Source: Euryarchaeota archaeon UBA23
Lineage (GTDB): Archaea > Thermoplasmatota > Poseidoniia > Poseidoniales > Thalassarchaeaceae
NCBI GenBank assembly: GCA_002498725.1
Contig: DAIJ01000008.1
Coordinates: 5,598-69,597, forward strand
Reading direction: 5' to 3'
Length of the DNA: 64,000 nucleotides
Below, piece after piece: positions 1 to 46,745 of the stretch (positions are counted from its first letter, which is position 1; every line of letters starts with the position of its first letter). The notes under the pieces are model-generated. The model saw only the letters and a program-made list of their open reading frames with translations. It ran no database searches and had not been told where the DNA came from. Made by a program: the position numbers and the translations under genes.

Positions 1-3000
1 GGAGGCGAAACATCTCCTCTATTATCAATGGGGGTAACTAAAACCATATGATCACTTAACTGATCAAGATAGACATTTCCTCCAATATCATGAATAGTTA
101 CGGTGACATATAGTGGAACCATGGGTTGTATATCATCAACAATTAGAGATTCTATATTATTCCCATAAAGTGCTTTAGTAGCAGTCAATTCAAGTTGGAA
201 ATCTGCTCCAAATTGCCGTTGATCAACTGTTAATAATCCACATGAAATTGGAGAATCTCTACACAATTCCCAAAGTATTGTTACATTATCTAGTGGATAC
301 TCAGAAATCCAAACTGTATAGAAATTGAAGTCTTCTGCTGAAGATCGATTCCAACGTATGTCAATTGCAGAGCCGTCATCTGGAAAGTGATCCCATGCAT
401 TTAGACCCGTGACTCTATCTGGAGCAACGGCTACACCTGTAAAATCTGCCTCAGGAGTTGCTTCAACAATTAGCACGTTATCGACATCAGAATTGCCCCA
501 GTCATCGAATGCAACTACACCTATCCAATATACGGTTCCATCTACAAGTCCACTAGTACCTAATGAGTCTATGATTACTGATGTTGTCTCACAATCGCTG
601 GTGTAAGCCGATACAGGCCATCCCTCAACTGTAGAAGGCGGCTGCCAACCTGAAGCTGGAAGTGCATATACTGCATAATATGTACAATCTTCTTCGAGGT
701 TCTTCTCCCAACTCACATTCAATCTACCACCTTCATCATTAGGTACATCTATTGCAGAGGTGCCTGTTATCGGCGAAGGTGGTATTCCATCATCTAGGCC
801 ACCTGCAGTAACTACAGGTCCGACTATAGTTGCATTAACTATGTCTGATTGGCCGGCCTCATCAACACAAACCGCAGCAAACCAATAAGGAACTCCAGCT
901 TCTAACTGAAGAATTGTATTGTTACCAGTACTCCAATGGAATTCGTATTCTCCTGTTAATCCGATTGCACTAGATATTTCTTGTTGAACTGCCCAAATAC
1001 GTGTACGATCTAGATCTATTTGGGTACAAGTAGACCATTCAAGATTGACTGTGCCTGCAATTCCTCCTTCTGTTATGTAAGCATTAAGCCATTCTGGTGG
1101 TTCTGGAACTTCATCCGTAGGTGTCGCATTAAGTGGGAACGTCATAGGCTCTCCTACAGAGCCATCCGCATACTCTATTGCTATCGCTGCTCGGTATGTT
1201 CTATCGTCCTCTAATGATACAATCTGGCCATCGTGATTTGCCTGAGTAATTGTTGCATTTGTCTGGGACCAGAAATTAGACCATACATAATTAGGCATAT
1301 CTCTTAGATCCTCTTTTTCAGGTACCCATACAGGATCGTCAGTAGAATCCCATACATACAATCTGTAGGCTGACCAAGCTGCATCTTCTGCTGGTAGCCA
1401 AGAGGCAGTTAGTACGCCCCCACCATCATTTGGTCTATCTGCCAATGAAGTCATGACTGTTGGAACCTCTATTCGCTGCCAATCATAAGTTAACCTGACT
1501 TGAATAGAACCATTAGCAGGAGATTGGAGTTGGAGTTGAAGGATAGCATCACCAGATCCTGGGCCTATTGCAGAAATTGCTGATTGGAATGCTTGTTGAA
1601 TCCCGCCATTAGTAGAAGCCATGTCCCAACTACCTGTATAATTTAGAGAACTTGATCGGGCCCAAATCCAACTACCTCCCTGAGGTGCACTCATTGTCAT
1701 TGTCCCAACATGCATTGGAAGTCTTGTAGGAGCTGCTGTAAAGGAAACTTCAGGGATTTGAATTGGATCTTCTGGAGTTACAAGGAAGGTACTCATTCCA
1801 GGGTGTGTTGTATCAGTGATATCCCATGACCTATTTGCATAGAGAACTGTAAGGGGTTCTGCTCTGCGTTGATACTCACGGGGCATTTCTTGCATACTTG
1901 TAATTGGTTTGTAGTAATGAAGGCCATCTTCTCCTACTACATACAATCCTGAGGAATCAAGGAATCCACTTTGCATCCCTGTGACTTCTTTACTACGAAC
2001 AAGAGAATGTGTAGTTTTGGCATCGATTACATCTATTCCACTAGGGCTCATAACTACCAAATTGTTACCATCAGAATGTATCTCAAAGGGAGGCCAAGAT
2101 AATAATGAATTTTCACCCACTCCTGTTTCCATTTTCTGTTTTGTTCCATTCCAGTGAACTATTGGTGCTGTATCTGTAGCAATGTGAACACCCCAATCAT
2201 CTGCAGTTATGGTGCGAACATCATTACTCGGAATCATATCTACATTGTAAGTGCCATTTTCTCTATCTGTTGCTATATCCCATGCAGCCACACCGGGTCT
2301 AGTGGGGCCCAACCCACTATGTGCAATGAATATCGCTGAGTCATGGTAAATGGTTGTGTTTGTACCATCGGGATTTTGTTGGATTCGTGAGACTGGTCCT
2401 GCATAATCGATACCGCTTACCGAATTGCCCATAAGTCCATCTTGGAATGTTAAAGTGGTTAAAACGGTCAAATTATTTTGCTCTAAAACTGTAACTCCAG
2501 CAGCGCCTCCTGCTAGCACTTGGCCCCCTCCTTGAATTGGAGATGGGATTGATGAAAGATGCTCAATTATTGAAGAGGGTAGCCCATCAATAGTGGTTAT
2601 TGGGTCATCCCAATCGTCTCGGGTAGTATTCCACATACCAATACCACCATGAGTTGCAATGAGGATATGGTCACCATATTCTAGGAAATCCCTCACTATG
2701 TTACTTGGTAATCCTGCAATGAGGCTGCCAAAGCCCCAGCTATTGCTACTAGTTGTGAAGGATTGGAATCCTGCTGAAGAACCCTCTCGACCCATTAGAC
2801 CAACATACATTGTTCCGTTCTCTAGAATTATACCATCCATTTGGGAATGCAAAGCAGGGGCTGTAGAAGATATTCTACGTTGTTGTAGATCAATAGACTT
2901 CAGACCACGTCCTGCCGTAGTAACCCAGAGAGTTTCTCCTTCAAGATGCATCTCACTAACGATATCTAATTGGAAGTTATATCCATATTCCCAACGAACT

Positions 3001-6000
3001 GATCCGTTTGAAAGTATTTGCCCCTGAAGAACTGATGAACCATAGTATGAATTTTGATCTAAGGCAGATGAAATCCATACATGAGTATCATTGGAAATAA
3101 TATCCATGACTCTACCACTAGCAAGACCGGCTAACTCATCGAAGCCACTAACTATCAATCCTGAGCTTTCAAGCCGATCTACCCTATTCAATCCTGTAGT
3201 TTGGCCCGACCTACCTACTGCATAGACTGTCTGACCTGAATTTGAAGGTGCGATGTCAATTGAACAGGCATCCATTCCAGGATCTAGAATTTGGCCGTTA
3301 GTGGTTGCTGTTCCTGAAGTTACTATCCTTGTTATTCCACCTACTCCATCATATTGATGTGCTGCTAAAAGCACATTATTGTGATGTAACATACCGCCTG
3401 GGAATATTCTATCAGTGCCAACTCCATCATTAGAATTAAGAATAGGTAGATATTGTTTATTTGCGTAATTAAATCTGTCAAATCCAACCCCTTCCGTATC
3501 ATATCCTATGTACAAAATACGATTATTCTCATCGCAGGCCAAAGCCCTTGGATCATTGTCTGACAGGCCATTGTTATTCCCTTCTGTGAATGATGTTAGC
3601 CACTCATTACTAATGCCGTCATTATCGCTATCTAGTAAATCGAACCGTGCTACTCCGCCCTGATTACCCCACCAACTGTATCGACCAATGGCAATGTGAA
3701 CTATGTTATCACATACCTGAATATCCGCAGGGTAGCCATCAGGGATACCTGCAGTGCCTAATTCCCAACCAGTCCAATTCCCAGTTGTGCCATTTTTCTG
3801 GATTACGTGAGCATCACGGTTCCAACCACTGGTTGAATAACTTCCAACCCAAAGATCATTCCCTACAATTTTCATTGTGTACAATCTGTCATCCCAGTCA
3901 TTGTCTATATCTGATGGAAGCCAAGAATCAAGCCATGTTTGATTATTTGGATTCCAACGGAGGATGCCATCCATACTAGCAAACAAGTATTCGCCTTGAT
4001 AATCAACCATTCCTCTTATCGGGCCACTTATATCATTCCATTCATTGAGTAAGGTCATGGTGTTGGCATTAAATCTACGAAGTGTATTATCTCCATAAGC
4101 CACCCATAATTCACAAGAACTAGTATTGAGAGGGAAACAGTCTCCCAAGAATCTTGCATTGACTCTCAATACGTTTCCAATAGTTGGAAGATTTTCCCCC
4201 CATGATTCATTTGTCATATTCCAACGAACAATGGTTCCATCTCCATTGTTATTATTAGTAGGTCGAACACCAATAAATAATTCATCTTGAACAATACCAA
4301 TACTATTTACAACACCACTCCAACCAGTGGTATCATCCGTATCAATTGAAGCCATATTGAAAGGGGTGGAGCCAGTAATATTGATCCTATGAATTTCATC
4401 TGAACTTCCTCCCCACCAACTGGTTGACCGCTGTTCAGAATAGTGTAAGATATCTCCAATGATTGGGTCGCTAAATATTACTGCGTCCGCTGGAATGGAT
4501 GAATCCGGAAGATCTGATTGACGATCCCAGTTCCATTCAATATTATCATTGACTACATCAATCAATGTGAATCCAAAATCTCCTCCTGCCAAAAGTGTTC
4601 CATACGTTGGACCGGGTATCAAAATGGTAACATCATCATCATTGATGTAGCCTTGACCTCCGTCCCACGTAGTTAGCCACTCTCGAGCGGTTAGATCAAA
4701 ACGAGCTATTCCTGTGTTCTCAAAACCTAAGTAAAGTATGTTATCAATCTCGACTGTTCGGGCTCTTTGAGTATTATCACCGGCAGTCCAAGTATCTATA
4801 ACACTGAAATTACCCATATCGACTATACCAGCGCCTTCATTTCCTCCGGTGTAAGCACGGTCTGAGCCTATCATCTCAATTGAATATACAAAGCGACTTT
4901 CTAGACCCTCCCCAGTACTAACACAATCTTGAAATTGGTACTGCCAGTTCCATTTGCAAGCGCCTCTATTTGTTCCAGCATAAATCCCATCCCCATCACT
5001 AGTAACGTCATAGAATACACTGGGTGTGTTCCACCATTGTCCTGAACCAGGAAGATTAGTCCAAGTCACTCCATCATAACGACTCATTTCACCGCGGGCT
5101 CCAACGAGAAGTCCTCCAAAATCATCCATCTCAAGAGAAAGTACATCGTCGTCAGGTAACGTACCTGCATCATCATTCCAGAATTCAGTTATATCTCCTG
5201 TAATTCGATCGATTACTAAAATTCCAAAGTCATACAATCCTAAGTAGACTATGTCTCCATCTACGGCGACAGGAGTGGCATCAAGATCATCTGCACCTAG
5301 TGATTGCCATGATCCCATGATAGAGGAATTTGATATTGCAACTCTCATAACTCCAGCATCCTCTGTAGCAAGATATGCAATTCCAAAGCGTGTTGCAACG
5401 GAACGAACGGAATCACTGTCAAGACCGTCAGACGTAGTGACTGTGTCTACAAGAGCCATTGCATTTGTATCTATAATAGAAATACCAGCTGTTGGATGAC
5501 CTATCACTAGATATCCATTAGTTGAATCATATGAAAGATCTGAAACTTGTGTTGATGCAATTCCACCAACAGTTCCCATGTATGAACCATCGACATCTAA
5601 ACGAAGTATGCCTGCATTTGTAGTACCAAACCAGATTTTTCCATTTGCATCTTGTTGAATCGCTGTGATTGGTCCTGGATCGGTTATATAATCACTGATT
5701 TCAATCGGATTCTTCCAAATCTGCTCAGATTTATCGAAGCGGTTTATTACATCATTACCGGCAACCCATATTTCTCCCTGAGCACCATCTTCTATGTGAG
5801 CCACTACTTCCATTGTTTCAATAGAGGGGCTACTGATCAAATTGATTTGATCACCAGTTGTAGTTTCGATATACTCGACTAATTTACCTGAGCCGTCACT
5901 AATTAGAGACATGCCCTTTGAAGGCCCGCGATCTGAATGTGCTGGCCAAGAGATTATTGATTCAGGATTACCAGTTAAACCAATATCTGAAATTTGTTGC

Positions 6001-7343
6001 TGAGATTGGAAAATCAGGGAATTCGTGTTGTACGCTTGTACGGTTGAACCAGCAAGAATATGTAACCATCCACTTGTAACCGATAGACCATGAATTTCAT
6101 TTGAAGATAACCAATTTGAAGTTGACCAAGTTGACAGCCAAGATTCTGAAACTGTATCTCGACGATTAATGCCGGCATCGCTAGTAGCTATCAATAATTG
6201 ATTGCCTAACATATCTAAATCTGTTATTTTATTTGAGACTAGATTATTTTGAGTGTTCCAAACAGTATTTGAATTTACAGAGATATTTGTTGCAAAATTC
6301 CCTACATTAGTTGTATAATCAATCAAATGAACTCCAAAACCTGTGGTCGCTAAGTAAATCGTATCAGAAATTATCAGAATATCGGAGGGTACTTCCGAAG
6401 CACCTGTCTGACAGAAGTCATAAATTCCCCAATCATTTGAATCAACTGTCAGATAACTGAGTGTACATACACTTGCTGCCCATATTGTTCCATAGTTGTC
6501 AGAGGTAACTGAGATTATTGGCTCTGTAGAATTTCCTGACTTTATTTCCGGTAAAATTGCTGAATCTATCAGACTTCTAGTCAATACGGATCCATTAGCC
6601 GTACCAATCAGAAGACGAGAGCCAGACTGATCTATACCTAGTGAGCGCCCTAATACATTGGATTCAATATCAATTATTGCCTTTGCAGCCCTTGTATCAA
6701 GATGTAGAAGATCGTCGTCCAACAAAATATACAATCTTCCATCGAAGGGATTTATTGCACTATCATGAATTATTACATCTTGAGGGGAAAATGAAACTTT
6801 AGGATCTGCGGGCCTTAATGCTTCAATTACCATATCTGTAAGAGTTACACCTGCCGGTAATTCCCAACTCGCATCGGAAATAGAATTTGGTCTTAGATAT
6901 GTATCCAAAGTACCATTCAAAACAGTGGGGGGGTTGTTTTCCATTGTATCCTGCCTACCAAGATCACCATAACCACGCCAGTCCAATATAGGAGTCTGTG
7001 TGTTCAATAATGTCAACTGAGGCTCTGTTGCCCAATAACCTGCAGATCCATTAACCGCGATTTCAAAGGTCAGATTAGAAATTTCGGCTCCTGGAGCGAA
7101 ATCCAAAATTAAGTCGGCATAAGCATATGTTCCATTTTCTGGATCGGCTCCAGTTGCTACTAAATCGATCCAGCCAGTATCATTTGATCCTGAACCACCC
7201 CAAAATGTCTGAGTTGCACGTCTATCTTCCTCAATACTCGATAATTCGGAGTCAATAGATGCTGTCCAAGGAAGTGTGACCATTAGGATGGTTAACACTA
7301 GAGCGGCCCTCTTCGAACCTAACTCGACCCCTCGGAAAGTCAT
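1..7343 (-). CDS. Giant secreted surface protein, N-terminal >2,440 aa (C-terminus beyond left edge); signal peptide, two-component-regulator-type beta-propeller (Y_Y_Y/Reg_prop-like) repeats and Ig/FnIII-like domains
   Basis: Uninterrupted minus-strand reading frame from ATG at 7343..7341 to position 1; the + strand here has only short ORFs. N-terminus MTFRGVELGSKRAALVLTILMVTLPWTAS is signal-peptide-like. Repeated motifs GKIWFGTTNAGILRLD, GEIWVAGNDVINRFD, GIARFD, GVARFD and W/G/D-rich propeller blades; FnIII/Ig-like segments towards the window start. Confidence 0.8.
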   Translation of the reverse strand, partial: MTFRGVELGSKRAALVLTILMVTLPWTASIDSELSSIEEDRRATQTFWGGSGSNDTGWIDLVATGADPENGTYAYADLILDFAPGAEISNLTFEIAVNGSAGYWATEPQLTLLNTQTPILDWRGYGDLGRQDTMENNPPTVLNGTLDTYLRPNSISDASWELPAGVTLTDMVIEALRPADPKVSFSPQDVIIHDSAINPFDGRLYILLDDDLLHLDTRAAKAIIDIESNVLGRSLGIDQSGSRLLIGTANGSVLTRSLIDSAILPEIKSGNSTEPIISVTSDNYGTIWAASVCTLSYLTVDSNDWGIYDFCQTGASEVPSDILIISDTIYLATTGFGVHLIDYTTNVGNFATNISVNSNTVWNTQNNLVSNKITDLDMLGNQLLIATSDAGINRRDTVSESWLSTWSTSNWLSSNEIHGLSVTSGWLHILAGSTVQAYNTNSLIFQSQQQISDIGLTGNPESIISWPAHSDRGPSKGMSLISDGSGKLVEYIETTTGDQINLISSPSIETMEVVAHIEDGAQGEIWVAGNDVINRFDKSEQIWKNPIEISDYITDPGPITAIQQDANGKIWFGTTNAGILRLDVDGSYMGTVGGIASTQVSDLSYDSTNGYLVIGHPTAGISIIDTNAMALVDTVTTSDGLDSDSVRSVATRFGIAYLATEDAGVMRVAISNSSIMGSWQSLGADDLDATPVAVDGDIVYLGLYDFGILVIDRITGDITEFWNDDAGTLPDDDVLSLEMDDFGGLLVGARGEMSRYDGVTWTNLPGSGQWWNTPSVFYDVTSDGDGIYAGTNRGACKWNWQYQFQDCVSTGEGLESRFVYSIEMIGSDRAYTGGNEGAGIVDMGNFSVIDTWTAGDNTQRARTVEIDNILYLGFENTGIARFDLTAREWLTTWDGGQGYINDDDVTILIPGPTYGTLLAGGDFGFTLIDVVNDNIEWNWDRQSDLPDSSIPADAVIFSDPIIGDILHYSEQRSTSWWGGSSDEIHRINITGSTPFNMASIDTDDTTGWSGVVNSIGIVQDELFIGVRPTNNNNGDGTIVRWNMTNESWGENLPTIGNVLRVNARFLGDCFPLNTSSCELWVAYGDNTLRRFNANTMTLLNEWNDISGPIRGMVDYQGEYLFASMDGILRWNPNNQTWLDSWLPSDIDNDWDDRLYTMKIVGNDLWVGSYSTSGWNRDAHVIQKNGTTGNWTGWELGTAGIPDGYPADIQVCDNIVHIAIGRYSWWGNQGGVARFDLLDSDNDGISNEWLTSFTEGNNNGLSDNDPRALACDENNRILYIGYDTEGVGFDRFNYANKQYLPILNSNDGVGTDRIFPGGMLHHNNVLLAAHQYDGVGGITRIVTSGTATTNGQILDPGMDACSIDIAPSNSGQTVYAVGRSGQTTGLNRVDRLESSGLIVSGFDELAGLASGRVMDIISNDTHVWISSALDQNSYYGSSVLQGQILSNGSVRWEYGYNFQLDIVSEMHLEGETLWVTTAGRGLKSIDLQQRRISSTAPALHSQMDGIILENGTMYVGLMGREGSSAGFQSFTTSSNSWGFGSLIAGLPSNIVRDFLEYGDHILIATHGGIGMWNTTRDDWDDPITTIDGLPSSIIEHLSSIPSPIQGGGQVLAGGAAGVTVLEQNNLTVLTTLTFQDGLMGNSVSGIDYAGPVSRIQQNPDGTNTTIYHDSAIFIAHSGLGPTRPGVAAWDIATDRENGTYNVDMIPSNDVRTITADDWGVHIATDTAPIVHWNGTKQKMETGVGENSLLSWPPFEIHSDGNNLVVMSPSGIDVIDAKTTHSLVRSKEVTGMQSGFLDSSGLYVVGEDGLHYYKPITSMQEMPREYQRRAEPLTVLYANRSWDITDTTHPGMSTFLVTPEDPIQIPEVSFTAAPTRLPMHVGTMTMSAPQGGSWIWARSSSLNYTGSWDMASTNGGIQQAFQSAISAIGPGSGDAILQLQLQSPANGSIQVRLTYDWQRIEVPTVMTSLADRPNDGGGVLTASWLPAEDAAWSAYRLYVWDSTDDPVWVPEKEDLRDMPNYVWSNFWSQTNATITQANHDGQIVSLEDDRTYRAAIAIEYADGSVGEPMTFPLNATPTDEVPEPPEWLNAYITEGGIAGTVNLEWSTCTQIDLDRTRIWAVQQEISSAIGLTGEYEFHWSTGNNTILQLEAGVPYWFAAVCVDEAGQSDIVNATIVGPVVTAGGLDDGIPPSPITGTSAIDVPNDEGGRLNVSWEKNLEEDCTYYAVYALPASGWQPPSTVEGWPVSAYTSDCETTSVIIDSLGTSGLVDGTVYWIGVVAFDDWGNSDVDNVLIVEATPEADFTGVAVAPDRVTGLNAWDHFPDDGSAIDIRWNRSSAEDFNFYTVWISEYPLDNVTILWELCRDSPISCGLLTVDQRQFGADFQLELTATKALYGNNIESLIVDDIQPMVPLYVTVTIHDIGGNVYLDQLSDHMVLVTPIDNRGDVSP

Positions 7344-7530
7344 GACAACAAGTGGATCGCAACTCCATCCCATTATGAAAGGCATGGGTTGATGATTTAG
7401 TGATGCATCTCCCTCTATAGAGGGAGTAATTAGAGGTAAAAGCGTGATACTGATGGCTGATAATATTAGGAAAATCTGTAGGATAGCATCAAAGAGGATG
7501 GGGTTGCCGGATGTCCTCGGAGGAGAGGCT

Positions 7531-9813
7531 ATGGCTGATGACCATCTGCGAAAAGATGCTCTGGATTATCATGCTCAGGATCCTCCCGGAAAGATCCGTG
7601 TTGAACCTACAAAACCACATAGTACTGCAAGAGAATTATCTCTAGCATACTCTCCCGGAGTTGCCTATCCATGTAAGGAAATTGAAGAACATCCAAATGA
7701 TGTTTACAAGTATACGTCAAAAGGTAATCTTGTTGCTGTAATAAGCAATGGTACAGCAGTACTAGGACTTGGTGACATCGGTCCTCTTGCAAGTAAGCCT
7801 GTAATGGAAGGAAAAGGGCTACTGTTCAAGGCATTTGCTGATATTGATGTTTTTGATATTGAAATTGATAGAATTGATGTGGATGAATTTGTTGAAGCCG
7901 TCAAGGCTATTTCTCCTACATTTGGTGGAATTAATCTTGAGGATATTAAGGCACCTGAATGCTTTGAAATTGAAAAACGGTTGGTTGCAGAATTAGATAT
8001 CCCAGTAATGCATGATGACCAACATGGTACGGCAATAATATCAGGGGCTGCATTGTTGAATGGCCTTGAATTGGTAGAGAAGGAAATTGATCAAGTTAAA
8101 ATTGTGATTTCTGGAGCAGGAGCTAGTGCTATTTCTTGTGCTAAACATTATCTCAGATTGGGTGTAAAATCAGAAAATATGTTAATGTGTGATTCGAAAG
8201 GAATTCTGACTAATGAAAGACTGAAAGCCGGAGAACTCAACGAATACAAAGCAATATTTGCACAAGATGTGAAAAATGGTGATCTGGCAACTGCAATAAA
8301 GGATGCCGATGTTTTCCTAGGACTCAGTAAAGGAGGAATTGTTTCTAAAGATATGGTAAAATCGATGGCTGAAAGGCCGATGATTTTTGCATTGGCTAAC
8401 CCTGATCCGGAGATAATGCCAGAGGATGTTTTGGAAGTAAGAGATGATGCCATTATAGCAACTGGAAGATCAGATTACCCTAATCAAATAAACAATGTCC
8501 TTGGATTCCCATACATATTCAGAGGTGCTCTTGATGTTAGAGCTACTGAAATTACTGAAAGCATGAAAATGGCGGCTACAAAAGCACTTGCAGAATTAGC
8601 AAAAGAACCTGTGCCTGATGATGTTGCTGCTGCATATGGGGGAGAGCAAATTCAATTTGGACCAGAATACCTGATCCCAAAACCATTCGATGCTCGGGTA
8701 CTAATTTGGGAAGCAAGCGCAGTGGCTCAAGCCGCGGTAAACGAAGGTGTTTCACGCTTATCCACTAATGAATTTGATTACAATGATTACAGAGATAGCC
8801 TCGAAGCACGTTTAGGTCTAACAAGATCAATTATGCGTGATGTGATAAATCGGGCTAAACAAGATCGGAAACGTGTCGTATTCTCAGAGGGAGAAGAGCC
8901 CACTATAATCAAAGCCGCATCAGAGTGTATAGCTGAAGGGATTTGTGACCCGATACTTCTTGGTCATCCAGAAAGAATACAAGCCGTAAAAGAAGAATTG
9001 GGGTTATCATTTGAATGCGAGACTATTGATGTAAGATATGATCCTCGTAGGCGTAGCTCTTATGCTGAAGAATTACTAGTCATGAGAGGAAGAAAGGGAG
9101 TCACTATGCGAGATGCAATAAATATGCTAAAATCTCCTAACTATTTTGGCCCTATGATGGTTCATGTAGGCGATGCTGATGGTTATCTTGGAGGTATAGC
9201 ACACAATTATCCAGATATTGTCAAACCTTGCCTCCAGACAATAGGTCCCGACCCTAATTCACACAGAATAGTAGGTCTGTATATGATGACTGTGAATGGA
9301 CGTTTGATGTTTATAGCGGATGCCACAATCAATATTTATCCCGACCCAAGAACATTGGCTGAAATCGCTGTACAGACGGCGAAAGTAGCAAGGAGATTCG
9401 GAGTTAAACCCAAAGTAGCAATGTTGTCATTCTCTAACTTTGGGACATCTAATGAATTACGAACAGATAGAATAGAGGAGGCGATTGCAATGGCTAGAGA
9501 AATAAATCCAGATATTGTTATCGATGGTCCAATGCAGGCAGATACTGCACTAGTTGACGAAATTCAGGAAGACTATCCATTTATGCAATTCAAAGGGCCT
9601 GCGAATGTACTCGTATGTCCAAATCTTGCGTCTGCAAATATTGCTTACAAACTTCTACAACGAATTGCTGGTGCTGAAATGACTGGCCCTATTCTTGAAG
9701 GATTGGCGAAACCTGCTCACGTTTTACAACGTGGAGATTCAGTCAGACAGGTTGTACACATGGCTGCTATAACTGCTGTAGACGCTCAGAGACATGCTCA
9801 TCAGAGATTGTAA
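7531..9813 (+). CDS. maeB: NADP-dependent malic enzyme, MaeB-type (malic enzyme fused to C-terminal phosphotransacetylase-like domain)
   Basis: About 60% identical by eye to E. coli MaeB over the full length (LAYSPGVA, GNLVAVISNGTAVLGLG, GGINLEDIKAPECF, HDDQHGTAIIS, ALANPDPEI, RSDYPNQINNVL, PTA-like C-terminal half). AGGAGAGG Shine-Dalgarno 5 nt upstream of ATG 7531. The track ORF begins at GTG 7444, which is probably an N-terminal over-extension. Confidence 0.9.
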   Translation: MADDHLRKDALDYHAQDPPGKIRVEPTKPHSTARELSLAYSPGVAYPCKEIEEHPNDVYKYTSKGNLVAVISNGTAVLGLGDIGPLASKPVMEGKGLLFKAFADIDVFDIEIDRIDVDEFVEAVKAISPTFGGINLEDIKAPECFEIEKRLVAELDIPVMHDDQHGTAIISGAALLNGLELVEKEIDQVKIVISGAGASAISCAKHYLRLGVKSENMLMCDSKGILTNERLKAGELNEYKAIFAQDVKNGDLATAIKDADVFLGLSKGGIVSKDMVKSMAERPMIFALANPDPEIMPEDVLEVRDDAIIATGRSDYPNQINNVLGFPYIFRGALDVRATEITESMKMAATKALAELAKEPVPDDVAAAYGGEQIQFGPEYLIPKPFDARVLIWEASAVAQAAVNEGVSRLSTNEFDYNDYRDSLEARLGLTRSIMRDVINRAKQDRKRVVFSEGEEPTIIKAASECIAEGICDPILLGHPERIQAVKEELGLSFECETIDVRYDPRRRSSYAEELLVMRGRKGVTMRDAINMLKSPNYFGPMMVHVGDADGYLGGIAHNYPDIVKPCLQTIGPDPNSHRIVGLYMMTVNGRLMFIADATINIYPDPRTLAEIAVQTAKVARRFGVKPKVAMLSFSNFGTSNELRTDRIEEAIAMAREINPDIVIDGPMQADTALVDEIQEDYPFMQFKGPANVLVCPNLASANIAYKLLQRIAGAEMTGPILEGLAKPAHVLQRGDSVRQVVHMAAITAVDAQRHAHQRL

Positions 9814-35172: not shown

Positions 35173-35400
35173 CTATTTCACTTCTTAACATAATATAGCG
35201 TCTCAGTATAGCGTTTAGGCCTAATGGAGAATTTTTACGCACAACGATTATCTAGCGCTGATTGTAAGGTATGTCCGTACGGGGCCGTTGAGGTTCTCGC
35301 TGAGTGCATCCCATCCCCTCGCTTGTGTCTCTCGCCCTGTACACCTAAATGATTAGACGCTAGGCTTTCAGTGATACATTTTTATGATTATAATATCATA

Positions 35401-36673: not shown

Positions 36674-37000
36674 TCACTCCTTTTCTGGTCTACGAATGTG
36701 TATTCCAAAGAATTCTGTTTTCTTCTCTGCATGTGGATCAAAAGCTGTGTCTCCTGAGTTTTCTGCTTGTTCCGGAGTCATACATTTCAAATCTAAGGCA
36801 TGAACTATATTCTGGGCGATAAAGGGTTTGAAATGATTCAAGATTGGTCTTTGTCTTTGTAATGGACGCATTCCCTCATAAGAAGAAGAGATTACTCTTA
36901 CATGGAAATGATCACCACTTCCATGTAAGTCAGTAGCCTCGACTCTAGCATCAGGAACCACTTTGAGAATCTCCTCAGACATCCACGCTTCTGTCACCAT
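36674..37000 (-). CDS. bolA: BolA-family protein
   Basis: BolA signature LHGSGDHFHVRVISSSYEGMRPLQRQRPI...IHAL. Confidence 0.8.
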   Translation of the reverse strand: MVTEAWMSEEILKVVPDARVEATDLHGSGDHFHVRVISSSYEGMRPLQRQRPILNHFKPFIAQNIVHALDLKCMTPEQAENSGDTAFDPHAEKKTEFFGIHIRRPEKE

Positions 37001-37047
37001 CGATATTAGCCCGAGGTTGGTAGGATTTGAATGCTCGCGCGTGTAAA

Positions 37048-37764: not shown

Positions 37765-37875
37765 TTGTCAATAATTCGTATGTTTATTACTTTGAAATCG
37801 CAATATCCAGCAACATGGAGAAATGCTAGTATTGATATGATGCCTGCTTAACGAGTACCCCTGCGGAGTGATAGC

Positions 37876-38193
37876 ATGGGCAGGATAATCAACGCTAGTG
37901 ATGCTGATTTTGATAATGTAACGAAGAGTGATGATTGGGTTTTAGTTGATTTTTGGGCTCCGTGGTGTGGGCCTTGTAAGATGATTGCTCCAGTATTAGA
38001 ACAAGTAGCCGAGGAGCGTGAAATGACTATTGCAAAAGTCAACACCGACGTCAATCCTCTTTCTGGAGGGAGATTTGGAATTCGTGGAATACCTGCGCTT
38101 TTACTTTTTCAAAATGGGGAACTTGTAGATCAACACGCTGGATTCATGCCAAAACCGGCTTTTGACCAATGGCTAAATCGACATATGGCTTGA
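37876..38193 (+). CDS. trxA: Thioredoxin
   Basis: WAPWCGPCKMIAP active site; 105 aa. Confidence 0.9.
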   Translation: MGRIINASDADFDNVTKSDDWVLVDFWAPWCGPCKMIAPVLEQVAEEREMTIAKVNTDVNPLSGGRFGIRGIPALLLFQNGELVDQHAGFMPKPAFDQWLNRHMA

Positions 38194-38198
38194 GTTAT

Positions 38199-41688: not shown

Positions 41689-43215
41689 TTGTATTACATT
41701 ATGCGTAAATACATGGATGCATATGATGAGTTGTTGGCACGACTGAAGGACATAGATTTGATTGGACAAATTGGAGGCCTTATGAGTTGGGATCAGGAAG
41801 TTCTGATGCCTCCAAAAGCTGCAGCACTAAGAGCAGAGCAACTCGCTTGGGTTTCAAAAACAGGACATGAAAGATTAACCGATCCAAAGATAGGAGAACT
41901 CCTAGATGTGCTAGAGTCTACTGATAACTTAGATGACATTCAATCAGCTAATGTAAGACTAGCTCGAGAGGCATATGATAGAGCCACAAAACTCCCCACT
42001 GAGTTCGTTGAAGAAATGGCCAAACACAGATCTAGGGCACAGATTTCTTGGAGTGAAGCCCGTGCAAAAGATGACTTCTCTATATTTCGAGATGATTTGG
42101 CTAAGGCAATTGACCTAGCCCGTCAGAAGGCCGACTATTTCGGTTACGACGATTTGCGATATGATGCACTACTAGACCTGTATGAGTCTGGACTTACAGT
42201 TTCTAGAGTAGATCCTCTATTCAAAGGATTAAGAGACAATGTGGCTCCCTTAGTAAAGGCTGTAATTGAGAATGGAAATAGGCCTGATATGTCTTGGGTA
42301 GAAAACAACAATTGGGAGCAATCATCTCAAGAATCTCTTAGTCACAGTGTAGCTGAGGCAATTGGATTTGACTTTGATGCTGGAAGACGGGATGCATCTA
42401 CTCATCCATTCTGCGGAGGACCAAATCCAGATGATGTGCGTTGGACTACAAGATACAGTGAGTCTGATCCATTTGGTTCACTGTATGGCTCTATGCATGA
42501 AACTGGACATGGGACCTATGAACAAGGACGAAGAAGAGATTTAGATTTCCAGCCTGCAGGTAAGGCAAATGGGTTAGGAGTACATGAAAGTCAGAGTAGA
42601 TTATGGGAAAATCAAGTTGGAAGATCTCGTGAATTTTGTGAATGGGTGCTACCTGTTTGGAGAGAAAACTTCCCCAATAATATGGAGGGCATAGATGCCG
42701 AGCAGTTATGGCAAGCTGTCAATTTAGTTGAACCCAGTTTGATTAGAGTTGAGGCGGATGAAGCTACTTATAATTTACACATCATGATTCGTTATGAAAT
42801 TGAAAAGAAACTTATTGCTGGAGATCTAGAAGTTGATGATTTACCCGAAGCTTGGGATGATATGTATGAAGAATTTCTAGGGATTCGTGCGCCAAATCGA
42901 ACTCTAGGGGTGCTCCAGGATATTCATTGGTCTATGGGTGCTTTCGGGTACTTCCCAACATATACTCTTGGTAACCTATACGCTGCTCAATTACTAGAGG
43001 CAGCAAGGAAAGAATTGCCAACACATGATGAACAAATGAGAAATGGAGAATTTGGCCCTCTGCTCTCTTGGATGAGAAAGAATGTGCATCAGCGTGGGAG
43101 CATATTAGAACCTGCAGCATTAATTGAAGAAGCTACAGGTTCTCCTCCTTCTCCTGATGCCTTTGTCACCTATCTAAAGGACAAAATAGAGTCGTTGTAT
43201 GGAATAAAAGCGTGA
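41689..43215 (+). CDS. Carboxypeptidase Taq-type metallocarboxypeptidase (M32)
   Basis: HETGHGTYEQG (HExxH) and conserved DIHWSMGAFGYFPTYTLGN. About 500 aa. Confidence 0.85.
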   Translation: MYYIMRKYMDAYDELLARLKDIDLIGQIGGLMSWDQEVLMPPKAAALRAEQLAWVSKTGHERLTDPKIGELLDVLESTDNLDDIQSANVRLAREAYDRATKLPTEFVEEMAKHRSRAQISWSEARAKDDFSIFRDDLAKAIDLARQKADYFGYDDLRYDALLDLYESGLTVSRVDPLFKGLRDNVAPLVKAVIENGNRPDMSWVENNNWEQSSQESLSHSVAEAIGFDFDAGRRDASTHPFCGGPNPDDVRWTTRYSESDPFGSLYGSMHETGHGTYEQGRRRDLDFQPAGKANGLGVHESQSRLWENQVGRSREFCEWVLPVWRENFPNNMEGIDAEQLWQAVNLVEPSLIRVEADEATYNLHIMIRYEIEKKLIAGDLEVDDLPEAWDDMYEEFLGIRAPNRTLGVLQDIHWSMGAFGYFPTYTLGNLYAAQLLEAARKELPTHDEQMRNGEFGPLLSWMRKNVHQRGSILEPAALIEEATGSPPSPDAFVTYLKDKIESLYGIKA

Positions 43216-44288
43216 AAAATATGGCTGGACATTCTCTAGAAAATATCGCATCATTTGTGCGTGATTTGGGGGGTGCTTGTTCTTCTATACTAATGAAAAA
43301 TGATTTCTTATTCGCTGGATCTCATGATGGAATGCTAATCTGTTGGAACAACAATACTGGAGATGAATTATGGAGATCTAAAGTAACCGGACCGATTAAT
43401 GATATCGCCTTGGATGAAAATATGGTTCTAATTACTGCATCTGCTAATATTCATGCTTTCAATTTAGAGGACGGCCTTATTTTGTGGAGTCGTGAACTAG
43501 AAGGGGCAAGTGATTTTGTTGTAGTAAAAGATAGTGTTATTTGGGCTAGTTCATCAGTGTACGAATTAGAAGTTGCCGACTTTATTGAATCTACAATTTG
43601 GAATTTCAACAAAAATGGAGATGAAGTCGAAAGATGGGTCATCGAAGAACGTCCGTGGATTCTTGGATTAAATGAGAAAGAGGAGGTCTTACTAGGACTA
43701 GGCCGACCTAGATGCGGATATATTAGAATTAGAATTGGGCAAAAACCAGAACACATAATTCTAGAAACCGATAGCCCTGTGACTTGTGGGTGCTGTAACT
43801 CTCCAAACAATTTTGTTTTTGGGCATGCCAATGGTAGTGTAAGTGTTGTTAATGAAGAGAAACACTCCACATACTCAAATGATGATCAATCTTTAATAAC
43901 TGCTGTAATGAACTTTCAGGAGGGGTGGATTGCTGGTAACGAAAACGGAATTTTGTATGCACATAATCAAATCAAAACTAGATCTGGTTCGATAGATGCT
44001 CTTGCTGAATGTTCTGGATATGCTTGGGCTTCATCCTGGAATGGAAGAAACTCAACTTTATTGAGATGGAATTTGGAAGGAAATGAACTTGAGATTTCAC
44101 ATGATTCAAGACTCCGTCAAATTTGTAGTTATAATGAAAAACTTGTACTCGGTGACGATTTCGGACGAGTTTTTTTGGTAGAGAATAATGTATTAGAAAG
44201 AAGGGTCAAAATAGTGGCTGAAGATGAAGATGAACAGATCAGAAATTCAGAATTAAGGGCACGACTGAGGATGTTAAGAAATCAATAA
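43212..44288 (+). CDS. PQQ-like beta-propeller repeat protein
   Basis: Repeated blade motifs (DGMLICWNNNTGDELWRS, DGLILWSREL, and so on) and a charged C-terminal tail. Start overlaps the M32 gene stop (ATGA). Confidence 0.55.
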   Translation: MKNMAGHSLENIASFVRDLGGACSSILMKNDFLFAGSHDGMLICWNNNTGDELWRSKVTGPINDIALDENMVLITASANIHAFNLEDGLILWSRELEGASDFVVVKDSVIWASSSVYELEVADFIESTIWNFNKNGDEVERWVIEERPWILGLNEKEEVLLGLGRPRCGYIRIRIGQKPEHIILETDSPVTCGCCNSPNNFVFGHANGSVSVVNEEKHSTYSNDDQSLITAVMNFQEGWIAGNENGILYAHNQIKTRSGSIDALAECSGYAWASSWNGRNSTLLRWNLEGNELEISHDSRLRQICSYNEKLVLGDDFGRVFLVENNVLERRVKIVAEDEDEQIRNSELRARLRMLRNQ

Positions 44289-44289
44289 T

Positions 44290-45137
44290 TTCAATATTTT
44301 CTGCACTGGAAAATAACATCCCCAGACCTCTATTTCCGGTCCACAGTGCCTCATTTAGGGAAAAGTTTATGTGCCTCTGACCCTCAGACCTAAGATGCCG
44401 CTTCGTGGGAGTGGTGTGGCAGGCACTTAGGTGCAGGCCGCGGGCCACAGAACCGAACCCCAAACACGGGGTGGTAGAACCGGGCTTCGAAAGAAGATCG
44501 GGGATAATCAAACTCGTCTTGTGGACGAGGGAGATGCGGTTGAACTGTAATGGAGCAAACGGACGCAAGAAAGTGAGCAAAGATACAGGGGAAGCTGGGG
44601 AAAACGAACCGAACTGTCTAGGCAGGGAAAACACAACCAAACCAGAAAACCAAACCGCGGGTGCATGAGCGAAGGATAAAAGAACCAGAGATGGGAAAAT
44701 ATCTGAGGCTTATCTACGGGAAACAAAGGCAGAAAAAAAACTGGACGCAAGAAAGGGGAAAAGAAACCTGAGGGAAACGTAGCGGGAACAAGAGCGCGGA
44801 GACGCGTGGAGGACCGGCATCAGTTCCACTAAACAAACTGGTGAGAGCCAGGGAGAGAAGTGGAAACGCAGAAACAGGGAGTGATCTCTGAAGAAGCGGA
44901 AACGACAAAAGAGCTCTTAGGAGTTCAAGAGTCATCTACCCGGAGAAATAATTGTCTTAGGGCAAGGAAAGAACCGGACCCTGCGGAGTCAGCAGGGGGC
45001 GATGCTCCCCCATGTGCAGAACCCCCTGCTGCTCCCACCTTGTACCAAAGTACGGCTGAGCCCTATTACATCTCGTTATCAATCATTGCGGAGTCTTTCT
45101 GCAGAATCTATTGGTTTTCAAACAGTAGCCTTTACTG
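44290..45137 (+). other. 850-bp convergent intergenic island with extreme purine/T-depleted strand bias and elevated GC; candidate structured ncRNA or protein-binding motif array
   Basis: No credible ORF: both strands give only low-complexity peptides. The + strand is heavily purine-rich and T-depleted. GGAAAC / GGGAAA(A)C occur at least 8 times and AGAACC(G) at least 5 times. The 3' end carries a perfect 10-bp stem (44990-45031) overlapping an alternative 5-bp G5/C5 hairpin (44995-45011). Confidence 0.3.
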
Positions 45138-46745
45138 TCACTGTCCTCGATTTGGTCCAATCATTTCTGATGGCCTTACCCATTGGTCGAATTGTTCGTT
45201 AGTAAGTATTCCCAGAGATATTGATGATTCACGTAAAGTCAATTGGTTGTCATGAGCGTGTTTGGCTATTTTAGCCGCAGAATCGTAACCGATGTGATTG
45301 TTTAGTGCTGTAACAAGCATCAGGCTATTCTCAAGGTGATTATGGATTACATCTTCGTTCGCTTTGAGATCTTTAACACATCTTTCTGTGAAGGAAATAC
45401 AAGTATCTGCAAGAAGCCTAGTACTATGTAGAAGATTGTATATCATCATTGGCTTGAATACATTCAACTCAAAATTCCCTTGACTTCCCCCTATTGTAAT
45501 AGACATGTGGTTCCCCATAACTTGGCAGCAAACCATTGTCATAGCCTCTGATTGAGTTGGGTTTACTTTTCCGGGCATTATGGATGACCCGGGTTCATTT
45601 GCAGGTAGGCTTAATTCTCCGAAACCACACCGTGGACCCGATCCCATCCATCGTATATCATTGGAGATTTTCATTAGACTTGTAGCTAATGTATTGAGAG
45701 AACCCGACATTGCAACTATAGCATCATGTGCAGCCAATTGGGCGAATTTATTCTCTGCTGAAACAAAGGCAATTCCTGTTTTACTTGATATCCTAGTTGC
45801 TACTTTGTCTGGAAATTCTTCATGTGTATTGAGACCGGTGCCAACTGCAGTCCCCCCCAAGGCCAATTCAAGAAGGTCGTTCCAAGAGTTTTCAATTCGG
45901 TGTATGTCTGCTTCCAACATGGAAGCATAGCCACCGAATTCTTGGCCTAGAGTAAGGGGTACTGCATCCATTAGATGTGTTCGTCCAATCTTAACTATGT
46001 CGCTAAATTCTCTGGATTTTTCTGCTAAATCGCCTTGAAGTCGGCGTACTGCAGGGAGTAGACGATGATGAATTTCTTCTGCTGCTGCAATGTGCATTGC
46101 TGTTGGGAATGTGTCATTACTGGATTGGCCTCTATTAACATGATCATTTGGATGAACTGGTGACTTGCTTCCTAATTCTCCACCGGCCATTTCAATTGCT
46201 CTGTTGGCGATTACTTCATTCGCGTTCATATTTGTCTGAGTCCCTGAACCCGTCTGCCATACACGAAGAGGGAAGTGGTCATCTAAAGAACCAGATATCA
46301 CTTCATCGCAGGCTGATGATATCAATGCTCCAACTTGTGGATCTAATTGATTGAGTTCTACATTTGTTTCAGCGGCTGCTTGCTTTAGTATTCCAAACGC
46401 TCGAATTAGAGATTTTGGCATGATGTCGTCGCCTATATCAAAATTGGTTAGAGACCTAGCTGTTTGACAGCCATAGTATCTACTAGATGGAACTTTTAGT
46501 TCCCCCATGGTGTCTTTTTCTATTCTAAATGTGCCTTCTTCCGATTTAGCGACTCTCTGATTAATTTGGTGTTTTTCCTGGTGTAATGATGGTGAAGATT
46601 CAAGGCTATTTTGGATCATGCCTGCTATTGTTGCACTACGTCCCTTGTCTTTTCCCTTACCTACTCTACGATCGAGTTTTCTAGCTAATTCTTCTGGAAT
46701 GCTTATGCTGATTATGCGGCGGTCTCCTGACCTATGCTTAGCCAT
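45138..46745 (-). CDS. fumC: Fumarate hydratase class II (FumC) with in-frame N-terminal ribbon-helix-helix (CopG/NikR-like) extension
   Basis: Core is near-colinear with E. coli FumC ([29 protein letters not shown]-terminal [13 protein letters not shown]...WVRPSEMIG). The first ~45 aa ([39 protein letters not shown]) match the RHH beta-strand-helixA-helixB pattern. No stop lies between the RHH region and the FumC core. Confidence 0.8.

Follow-up and report, generated by a model that had tools for sequence, protein, structure and literature searches.

The DNA considered here is a stretch of 64,000 nucleotides (nt) of contig DAIJ01000008.1 from Euryarchaeota archaeon UBA23, a member of the Poseidoniales. 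This whole stretch is called the window, and all coordinates refer to it. Our subject is the spacer between two convergent genes of the window, one encoding a PQQ/BamB-type beta-propeller protein on the + strand (43212-44288) and the other, fumC, lying on the - strand (45138-46745). The spacer is bounded by the stops of the two genes (at 44288 and 45138, respectively) and comprises 849 nt (44289-45137). It almost certainly holds the gene of a structured noncoding RNA (ncRNA) on the + strand, about 643 nt long (44397 to about 45039), as indicated by profile matches, covariation, conservation and a noncoding pattern of variation.

The spacer and its coding status

An earlier, model-made reading of the letters alone (the sequence-only reading) had singled out this spacer as unusually long, at about 850 bp, for a compact genome, and as purine-rich, T-depleted and locally raised in GC content. 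These observations hold. The other gaps of the window that are free of open reading frames (ORFs) do not exceed about 434 nt; the next-largest stretches devoid of long ORFs lie at 37765-38198 (434 nt), 36742-37047 (306 nt) and 35173-35400 (228 nt). The composition extremes of the window also fall here. The purine fraction is 0.604 for the whole spacer and 0.68 for 44400-44990, and within the entire 64 kb the purine-richest 600-nt stretch begins at 44405 (0.687; the window averages 0.50, with a standard deviation of 0.048). At the same scale, the T minimum starts at 44429 (0.12, against a mean of 0.295), while GC amounts to 0.48-0.53 in the spacer as compared to 0.36-0.45 in the flanks.

Two short motifs recur in the spacer. 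GGAAA(A)C occurs at six sites, where 1.15 would be expected, and AGAACC at five, where 0.53 would be expected; in either case a single one of 1000 dinucleotide-preserving shuffles reaches the count, so the recurrence is real. The figure of at least five AGAACC sites given beforehand is thus correct, and the GGAAAC array is indeed enriched beyond chance, but it consists of six distinct sites and not of "at least 8". Nor do the GGAAAC sites reside in a G-GAAA-C hairpin context with a tetraloop, as had been supposed: in the covariation-supported model discussed below they sit in helix strands and internal loops, and the tetraloops of this model are GAAA, GCAA, GAGA and UUAG (UUCG in relatives).

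The ORFs predicted in the spacer had been dismissed as artefacts, and the comparison with relatives leads to the same view. In an alignment of 24 related spacer sequences, termed A2, variability by codon phase is 0.460, 0.472 and 0.471, which means that there is no 3-nt periodicity. Insertions and deletions are mostly 1-2 nt long, and the longest open frames change frame and strand from one relative to another, none of them being open across the relatives. A conserved protein-coding homologue, which the same reading had named as the finding that would speak against an RNA, is therefore not seen: neither a conserved frame nor a codon periodicity was detected. Stop-free + strand frames of 180-200 amino acids, rich in G, E, R and K, do exist in some relatives, because the depletion of T leaves few stop codons. 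In one related contig record a called gene sits inside the RNA gene; an exact look-up, in the assemblies, of the spurious ORFs over the RNA returned nothing on record.

Conservation in the Poseidoniales

A genome scan with the single propeller protein gave no match, and a family alignment was used for the locus search. The resulting set contains 151 loci (numbered with the prefix L), of which 67 stem from GTDB species genomes, 80 from metagenomes, retrieved via the propeller family, and four from contigs with an identical propeller protein. The spacer sequence is matched in 138 of the 151 loci by a single-sequence nhmmer search and in 148 with a profile; the three loci without RNA sequence end before the spacer. 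Matches are always on the same (+) strand and start 10-20 nt past the propeller stop. In the window itself the profile match extends from 44302 to 45069 and is single-copy. Judged from these sequences, every one of the Poseidoniales sampled carries the RNA gene as a positional orthologue, in loci of both the MGIIa and the MGIIb type of marine group II (MG-II). Such positional conservation in the relatives, for which the sequence-only reading had proposed to look, is at odds with a junk spacer or a decaying pseudogene.

The RNA keeps 76-83% identity over some 800 nt even in relatives with a propeller protein of no more than 47-54% identity. In most of these relatives the M32 carboxypeptidase and FumC show 72-86% protein identity, comparable to the RNA. 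A syntenic block is formed by the genes for the M32 carboxypeptidase and the propeller, the RNA gene, fumC and a peptidyl-prolyl isomerase (PPIase) gene. The RNA is kept in L068 and L069, which have an extra gene between the RNA and fumC, and also in MGIIa-type loci, which have no M32 gene upstream. Loci in which the propeller protein is as little as 29-32% identical include contigs labelled Poseidoniaceae (MGIIa), and the MGIIa-type loci keep the upstream inverted repeat, the promoter spacing and both the 5' and the 3' hairpin. In a block-wise search with hidden Markov models, no similarity between MGIIa and MGIIb was found beyond the first ~35 and the last ~60 nt, and the terminal matches themselves are marginal (E ~0.02-0.4). 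Conservation across the order covers the promoter, the hairpins at both ends and the 22-nt loop of the 3' hairpin, and the interior has diverged.

The length of the RNA varies among relatives from about 470 to 1090 nt, for the most part because a purine-rich hairpin module, described below, has been gained or lost. Some exceed 1 kb, and large insertions are present within the RNA gene in L022 (3481-4256, about 775 nt replacing about 100 nt), L061 (6394-7575) and L066 (6092-7339). The contigs break inside this element of about 0.8 kb in 27 of 148 cases, including all four contigs with an identical propeller protein (L001-L004). These breaks would fit assembly failure at a sequence that is highly conserved among co-occurring strains, as at rRNA genes.

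A mobile or viral origin was considered and rejected. In viral contigs, a scan with 14-mers gave about 120 chance matches, none of those checked fitting the RNA profile, and a specific 19-mer gave none; a BLAST search of GenBank phages was equally negative. A group II intron or another mobile RNA is contradicted by the lack of an Rfam intron match and of a reverse transcriptase or other ORF. Moreover, throughout the order the RNA gene keeps its place between the propeller gene and fumC, and the RNA is therefore not regarded as mobile.

Fold, promoter and ends of the predicted RNA

Pair counts were made on A2. RNAalifold predicts 116 pairs from the alignment, 37 of which have compensatory changes. 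A more extensive, RIBOSUM-scored consensus of 195 pairs was compared with controls in which the 3' partners were slid by 1-3 columns and with 500 shuffles. In this model 93.5% of the cells form standard pairs, versus 33-44% with slid partners, and 70 of the 195 pairs have changed on both sides, versus 15-20 in the slid controls; none of the 500 shuffles reaches the observed values. G:U combinations occupy 335 cells and A:C combinations 79, and for several pairs G:U is found in every or almost every one of the 24 sequences. Since G:U outnumbers A:C, the + strand is considered to be the transcribed one. When the window sequence is folded singly, z is -2.8 on the + strand and -1.8 on the - strand.

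The sequence-only reading had offered two interpretations, a long purine-rich transcript and a DNA array of protein-binding sites, and it had called the purine bias atypical for classical folded RNAs. The compensatory changes and the G:U excess (335:79) indicate selection on an RNA of the + strand, contrary to a DNA array. In place of a loose transcript there is a highly structured and conserved RNA gene, whose multi-domain fold, with nested long-range helices, GNRA/UNCG tetraloops and strong covariation, does not bear out the supposed distance from folded RNAs.

The RNA gene seems to be equipped with its own promoter, a function suggested by its motifs. A GAAAAG element (44360-44365), resembling a transcription factor B recognition element (BRE), is immediately followed by the predicted TATA box TTTATGTG (44366-44373), both on the + strand, and GAAAnnTTTA is invariant in A2. 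A TT[TC]A[TA] box begins exactly 31 nt before the invariant G of GCCGCU in all 57 distinct upstream regions, with a variable spacer in between. Because this fixed 31-nt spacing is the expected archaeal BRE/TATA geometry, the start has been placed at 44397. A sigma-70 and terminator scan looks for bacterial signals and is uninformative for an archaeon. T-runs are found after the propeller stop.

Between this stop and the promoter lies an inverted repeat, CTGGAAAA...ATTTCCGG (44302-44343, + strand), of the CAGTGGAAAT...ATTTCCACTG type. Among 24 relatives its arms vary hardly or not at all, except that one pair is UA, UG or CG. The repeat, situated about 28-30 nt from the TATA box, is kept order-wide, even where the propeller is at 29-32% identity. 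It could be a 3' hairpin of the propeller mRNA or a binding site for a regulator. Another pairing, between the last codons of the propeller gene (44265-44276) and 44314-44325, was dropped, as it is found only in the closest clade and is absent from the others.

The RNA would begin with a 5'-terminal hairpin of 8 bp, GCCGCUUC-GUG-GGAGUGGU (44397-44415, + strand; helix 6). Eighteen distinct variants of this hairpin, across MGIIa and MGIIb, share two near-invariant G:U pairs (in 17 and 16 of the 18, respectively); pairs 2 and 8 change from CG to UA, and pair 7 is CG, UG or UA. Next on the same strand comes a second hairpin (44416-44441; helices 7 and 8), in which GUGGC...GCCGC closes CAC-UUAG-GUG. 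Its MGIIa-type equivalent has GGAG..CUCY closing a UUCG-type hairpin, a compensatory difference between the clades.

At the other end, a 3'-terminal hairpin, UGcGGAGuCAGCAGGGGG...CCCCCUGCUGCUCCCA (44982-45037, + strand; helix 47), is an inverted repeat with 16 bp and a C-rich loop of 22 nt. It is the independent minimum-free-energy fold in 28 of 28 distinct variants, and its stem displays compensatory versions such as CUGGCAGGGGGG/CCCCCCUGCCAG in MGIIa-type members, GGGAAAA/UUUUUCC in L037 and UAGUAG/CUGCUA in L030. A perfect 10-bp inverted repeat (44990-44999/45022-45031), recognized from the letters alone, lies in this hairpin and makes up its covarying core. It had also been proposed that a nested G5/C5 hairpin competes for the same G-run in a two-state switch. 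Both runs are present (44995-44999 and 45007-45011), and the pairing between them lacks conservation. L037, L039 and L040 have GGGAAAA in place of the G-run, with UUUUUCC as a compensating change on the outer partner, and they keep the inner CUCCCCC. The outer stem thus covaries and the inner pairing is lost, which leaves no conserved switch. The loop, in turn, keeps its length of about 22 nt and its pattern in the majority of members of either clade and is shorter in a few, e.g. L037 and L048; such a conserved C-rich loop appears easier to reconcile with a tertiary or intermolecular contact than with an alternative hairpin formed locally.

The 3' end of the RNA is predicted at or shortly past CUCCCACC (45032-45039, + strand). 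In L037-L054 and the MGIIa-type loci, T-runs occur shortly past CCACC and there is no conserved trailer. The 19 closest A2 sequences, and only these, share a trailer (45042-45092, + strand) with a hairpin, GUAC-CAAA-GUAC (45042-45053), and a block TTATCAATCATTGCGGAG (about 45072-45092). Because the clade of the window carries this conserved trailer where other clades show T-runs, the 3' end is uncertain within about 45039-45092. The trailer with its TTATCAATCATTGCGGAG block may be a 3' extension of the RNA, a terminator region, possibly a shared one, or the 3' untranslated region (UTR) and transcript end of fumC.

The body of the RNA would be enclosed by long-range closing helices. Their 5' strands, on the + strand and invariant in A2, are GGGCC (44442-44446), CCG (44453-44455) and GGUAGA (44473-44478), and a local hairpin (44457-44472, + strand) lies between them. 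In the 195-pair model they are joined to the + strand segments UCUACC (44935-44940), CGG (44941-44943) and GGaCCC (44976-44981), with GGGCC pairing with GGaCCC, CCG with CGG and GGUAGA with UCUACC (44442-44478 with 44935-44981). As they are invariant in A2, these helices are consistent with the model but unproven. Alternative closing helices, GUGG/CCAC and CCGCGGG/CCUGCGG, are disfavoured, since the MGIIa-type loci support the local second hairpin together with an extended 3' hairpin. A "processing stem" of 44380-44388 with 45083-45091, a weak pairing (helices 3-5), was rejected because its 5' arm is upstream of the predicted start.

According to the model, the body is composed of four domains with hairpin arms capped by GNRA/UNCG tetraloops and with large, symmetric, purine-rich internal loops; the elements described here are all on the + strand. 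One domain (44536-44658) carries purine-rich arm 1 and an arm at 44589-44651. Its closing helix (helix 17; 44536-44541/44653-44658) has compensatory changes at four of six pairs (GC/AU 12:9; CG/AU/UA). A further domain (44659-44822; helices 26 and 35-37) is closed by 44659-44664/44817-44822 and contains a hairpin (44669-44709), purine-rich arm 2 (44714-44782) and a near-invariant hairpin block capped by GAGA (44783-44816). Helix 30, which closes purine-rich arm 2 (44714-44718/44778-44782), is compensatory at four of five pairs. Three hairpin arms (44824-44865, 44867-44898 and 44904-44933; helices 38-44), each with compensatory pairs, and a variable hairpin (44952-44965; helix 45), all four pairs of which covary, complete the picture.

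A repeated module, CYGGAC-GNAA-GRAAGG (GGACGNAAGRA), is set in the purine-rich arms. The window RNA has two copies, GGACGCAAGAAAG at 44561-44573 in arm 1 and a second at 44743-44755 in arm 2. Among the relatives the number ranges from 0 to 6 per RNA, L005, L008 and L010 having additional tandem copies in the 44536-44658 domain. As MGIIa-type members have no copy, the module is not part of the conserved core. The GGA of the module is located in the internal loop that flanks the GNAA tetraloop, and not in the hairpin loop. In MGIIb RNAs the purine fraction reaches 0.75 and U falls to about 5-7%, compared to 0.51-0.58 purine in the MGIIa-type; purine richness is therefore a property of MGIIb and not of the whole family, and much of the difference comes from the hairpin module. 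Thalassarchaeum-type relatives (L023, L131, L027 and others) carry the module in units with a 10-nt purine periodicity, UGGAGAGAAC / UGGACGMAAG / GAAGGGGAAG, and their purine-rich arms attain 75% purine and 5-7% U. Given the spacing of G-tracts in the arms of this type, two-tier G-quadruplexes could form there.

Relation to known RNAs and possible roles

Going by Rfam 15 and the literature that could be searched, this family of large structured RNAs is undescribed. At gathering thresholds, Rfam 15 gave no match for the whole window or for 12 related loci, raiA and the other large ncRNAs described in it included. At E<=10, the spacer and the compact L069 version returned only chance-level snoRNA and miRNA matches, and ARAGORN detected neither tRNA nor tmRNA. 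The initial impression that the region resembles no known ncRNA family has accordingly survived the Infernal/Rfam scan that had been recommended along with it. In the literature searched, there is no description of a large Poseidoniales ncRNA.

The described RNA closest in source is Tan1 (Thalassoarchaea ncRNA 1), a highly abundant MG-II ncRNA of 229 nt with a "complex secondary structure" according to Hou et al. 2016 (PMC5069720). It is an abundant MGIIb ncRNA with homologues that are 75-79% identical, similar to the 76-83% of the new RNA, but with its 229 nt it is much shorter than ~643 nt; as the two were compared by the published description only, Tan1 might be the same RNA, a fragment of it or another locus. 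The same report attributes 93% of MG-II RNA-seq reads to 13 "mRNAs" for intrinsically disordered proteins (PMC5069720). Frames over the new RNA translate to low-complexity products like those proteins. The idea that some of the highly expressed "disordered protein" genes could be ORFs wrongly called on the new RNA is a lead and no more. If Tan1 or some of these "disordered protein mRNAs" did represent the mis-annotated new RNA, it may rank among the most abundant MG-II transcripts in situ, and the reports of hugely expressed disordered proteins may need to be read anew.

To our knowledge, most of the large (>500 nt) structured RNAs described to date, ribosomal ones aside, come from bacteria and phages, and a line of RNA biology has started from each of them. 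GOLLD and ROOL are bacterial or phage-associated and often borne by prophages. Like the new RNA, they came to light by comparative analysis, are large and "ornate" and bear numerous arms capped by tetraloops; unlike them, the new RNA occupies a fixed chromosomal position across an archaeal order, is absent from the viral collections searched and matches neither model. OLE, an intricately folded RNA of about 600 nt that is restricted to Bacillota and reportedly works in a ribonucleoprotein (RNP) (PMC9723947, PMC12054373), is similar in size, intricacy of fold, lineage restriction, highly conserved nucleotides between helices and its stand-alone gene. The differences are that OLE is bacterial, while the new RNA is archaeal and far more purine-rich and U-poor, has no OLE partner genes nearby and has no Rfam match. 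Homo-oligomeric complexes are reported for OLE, ROOL and GOLLD in another study (PMC12286853), and by analogy an RNA-only homo-oligomer is a possible mode of action of the new RNA as well.

On balance, the combination of features slightly favours an independent gene for a stable, structured ncRNA of about 643 nt that acts as a scaffold of an RNP or RNA assembly, with expandable arms. The scaffold mechanism taken by itself is put forward tentatively, with less than even confidence. Ends sealed by hairpins would make the RNA long-lived, its conserved fold would constitute the architectural core of a ribonucleoprotein or RNA assembly, and the expandable purine-rich arms, with their symmetric G/A-rich internal loops, could provide repeated docking surfaces for proteins or for RNA-RNA contacts. 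Such a role is suggested because the size of the interior varies against constant termini and because the arms repeat. Several points weigh against it. The start, end and expression of the RNA are predictions, and the window has no clear oligo-T terminator past 45039, so that the 3' end could fall at any point as far as about 45092. Because several of the closing helices do not vary, covariation does not prove them, and there are two alternative pairings for the GCGGAG region. No partner protein has been pinpointed; the adjacent propeller is a generic 8-bladed fold, and adjacency says little. Finally, a scaffold is the default reading for any large RNA without an assigned function.

Two other roles for the RNA appear unlikely, to a similar degree. 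It could titrate a protein by a CsrB-like logic, its GGA hairpin modules sequestering many copies of one RNA-binding protein. The variable copy number of the module (0-6), with tandem duplications that are visible among the relatives, the 10-nt purine periodicity of the Thalassarchaeum-type units and the enrichment of GGAAA(A)C and AGAACC would all suit a sponge, and repeated purine-rich, GGA-containing hairpin units in variable number are indeed what CsrB and RsmZ have in common with the new RNA. To this extent the CsrB-type sponge envisaged in the sequence-only reading had captured a true feature; membership of the CsrB type is another matter. The window RNA has only two modules, and MGIIa-type RNAs have none and yet keep the promoter and the terminal structure. 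Most of the conserved part is unique sequence tied up in nested long-range structure, the GGA is not in the hairpin loop, the host is archaeal, and no sponge family of Rfam is matched. CsrA-family proteins are not known from archaea, and among the six flanking genes scanned against Pfam, to which the search was confined, none encodes a protein of the CsrA/RsmA family. A ribozyme, or an RNA-only nano-assembly formed by self-oligomerization in the manner of the ornate bacterial RNAs, would be in keeping with the size, with the dense occurrence of tetraloops and with unpaired blocks that are conserved, among them GAGUCAUCUACCC and GUGGAGGACCGG. The exposed C-rich loop of 22 nt, conserved in length across the clades, could form kissing contacts, and homo-oligomers are on record for such bacterial RNAs (PMC12286853). 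But MGIIa and MGIIb interiors without detectable similarity would be unusual for a catalytic core, the context suggests neither a substrate nor a chemistry, and no tertiary contact has been demonstrated.

The remaining explanations are much less probable. The element is very unlikely to act in cis, whether as a long structured 3' UTR belonging to the M32 carboxypeptidase-propeller operon or as an antisense element or terminator of the convergent fumC. The conserved region does begin about 13 nt past the propeller stop, with a conserved hairpin, and the trailer at 45042-45092, conserved in close relatives, abuts fumC; against this, the BRE/TATA box is fixed at 31 nt before an invariant start in spite of a variable spacer, T-runs follow the propeller stop, and the RNA persists in L068 and L069, where a gene separates it from fumC, and in MGIIa-type loci that have no M32 gene. 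A very divergent RNase P RNA or signal recognition particle (SRP) RNA has effectively been refuted. The archaeal RNase P and SRP RNAs resemble the new RNA in being single-copy, promoter-driven, order-wide structural RNAs with variable peripheral elements, closure by terminal helices is a further point in favour, and a ACAGAACC string recalls, by eye only, conserved region V (CR-V) of RNase P RNA. The new RNA is about twice as long, however, and neither the window RNA nor the compact L069 version matches a covariance model even at E<=10. Furthermore, MG-II transcriptomes contain canonical versions of both, namely a type A RNase P RNA (RF00373) of 292-306 nt and an SRP RNA (RF01857) of 305-315 nt, as stated by Hou et al. 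2016 (PMC5069720), and the new RNA is for this reason neither of them. The view that the spacer encodes no RNA at all, being instead an array of protein-binding sites in DNA, a decayed pseudogene or an unrecognised protein gene, is likewise refuted. It can draw on the recurring short motifs and on the stop-free frames of 180-200 amino acids in some relatives, but it is incompatible with the compensatory pair changes, the asymmetry of G:U over A:C, the noncoding pattern with indels of 1-2 nt and no conserved frame, and a nucleotide identity (76-83%) far above that of a decaying spacer.

The Poseidoniales are an abundant, uncultured order of marine archaea and are among the commonest archaea of the surface ocean. 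A conservation like that of rRNA, a predicted promoter of its own and a fixed position in every sampled member imply an important cellular function for the RNA. With just under even confidence, it represents a new class of large "ornate" RNA, the first one known that is specific to Archaea and universal in Poseidoniales, in which an order-wide terminal clamp and lineage-specific, purine-rich expansion arms would form the core of an RNP or of a self-assembling or catalytic RNA. There are also consequences for annotation, as gene callers place low-complexity "hypothetical proteins" on the RNA gene, and the conservation of the RNA may be one cause of breaks in metagenome assemblies. With its covarying alignment and defined ends, the RNA lends itself directly to tests.

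Of the neighbouring genes, that of the propeller overlaps with its start the stop of the M32 carboxypeptidase gene. The AlphaFold2 model of its product (pLDDT 89.5) is an 8-bladed propeller with a C-terminal helix of 32 residues, which is conserved and Arg-rich (...LRARLRMLRN), and the closest Foldseek matches of this model are designed propellers and BamB. The family appears to be restricted to Poseidoniales and is fast-evolving (29-54% identity, versus 70-90% in its neighbours). The propeller was considered as a partner of the RNA and set aside, no functional link being drawn to such a generic fold; in a gene block that is syntenic throughout, adjacency is only weakly indicative of a partnership. 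On the other side, the fumC product has 535 amino acids, with a Lyase_1 domain from residue 81, preceded by an N-terminal extension of about 80 residues that the sequence-only reading called ribbon-helix-helix. Elsewhere in the window, an apparent gap of 4.4 kb (3028-7443) is in reality occupied by a giant - strand ORF that runs off the window. The stop-free frame extends over window positions 3-7565 (2521 codons) with its first Met at 7385, corresponding to a gene for more than 2400 amino acids, which is missing from the ORF list because it is cut by the window edge.

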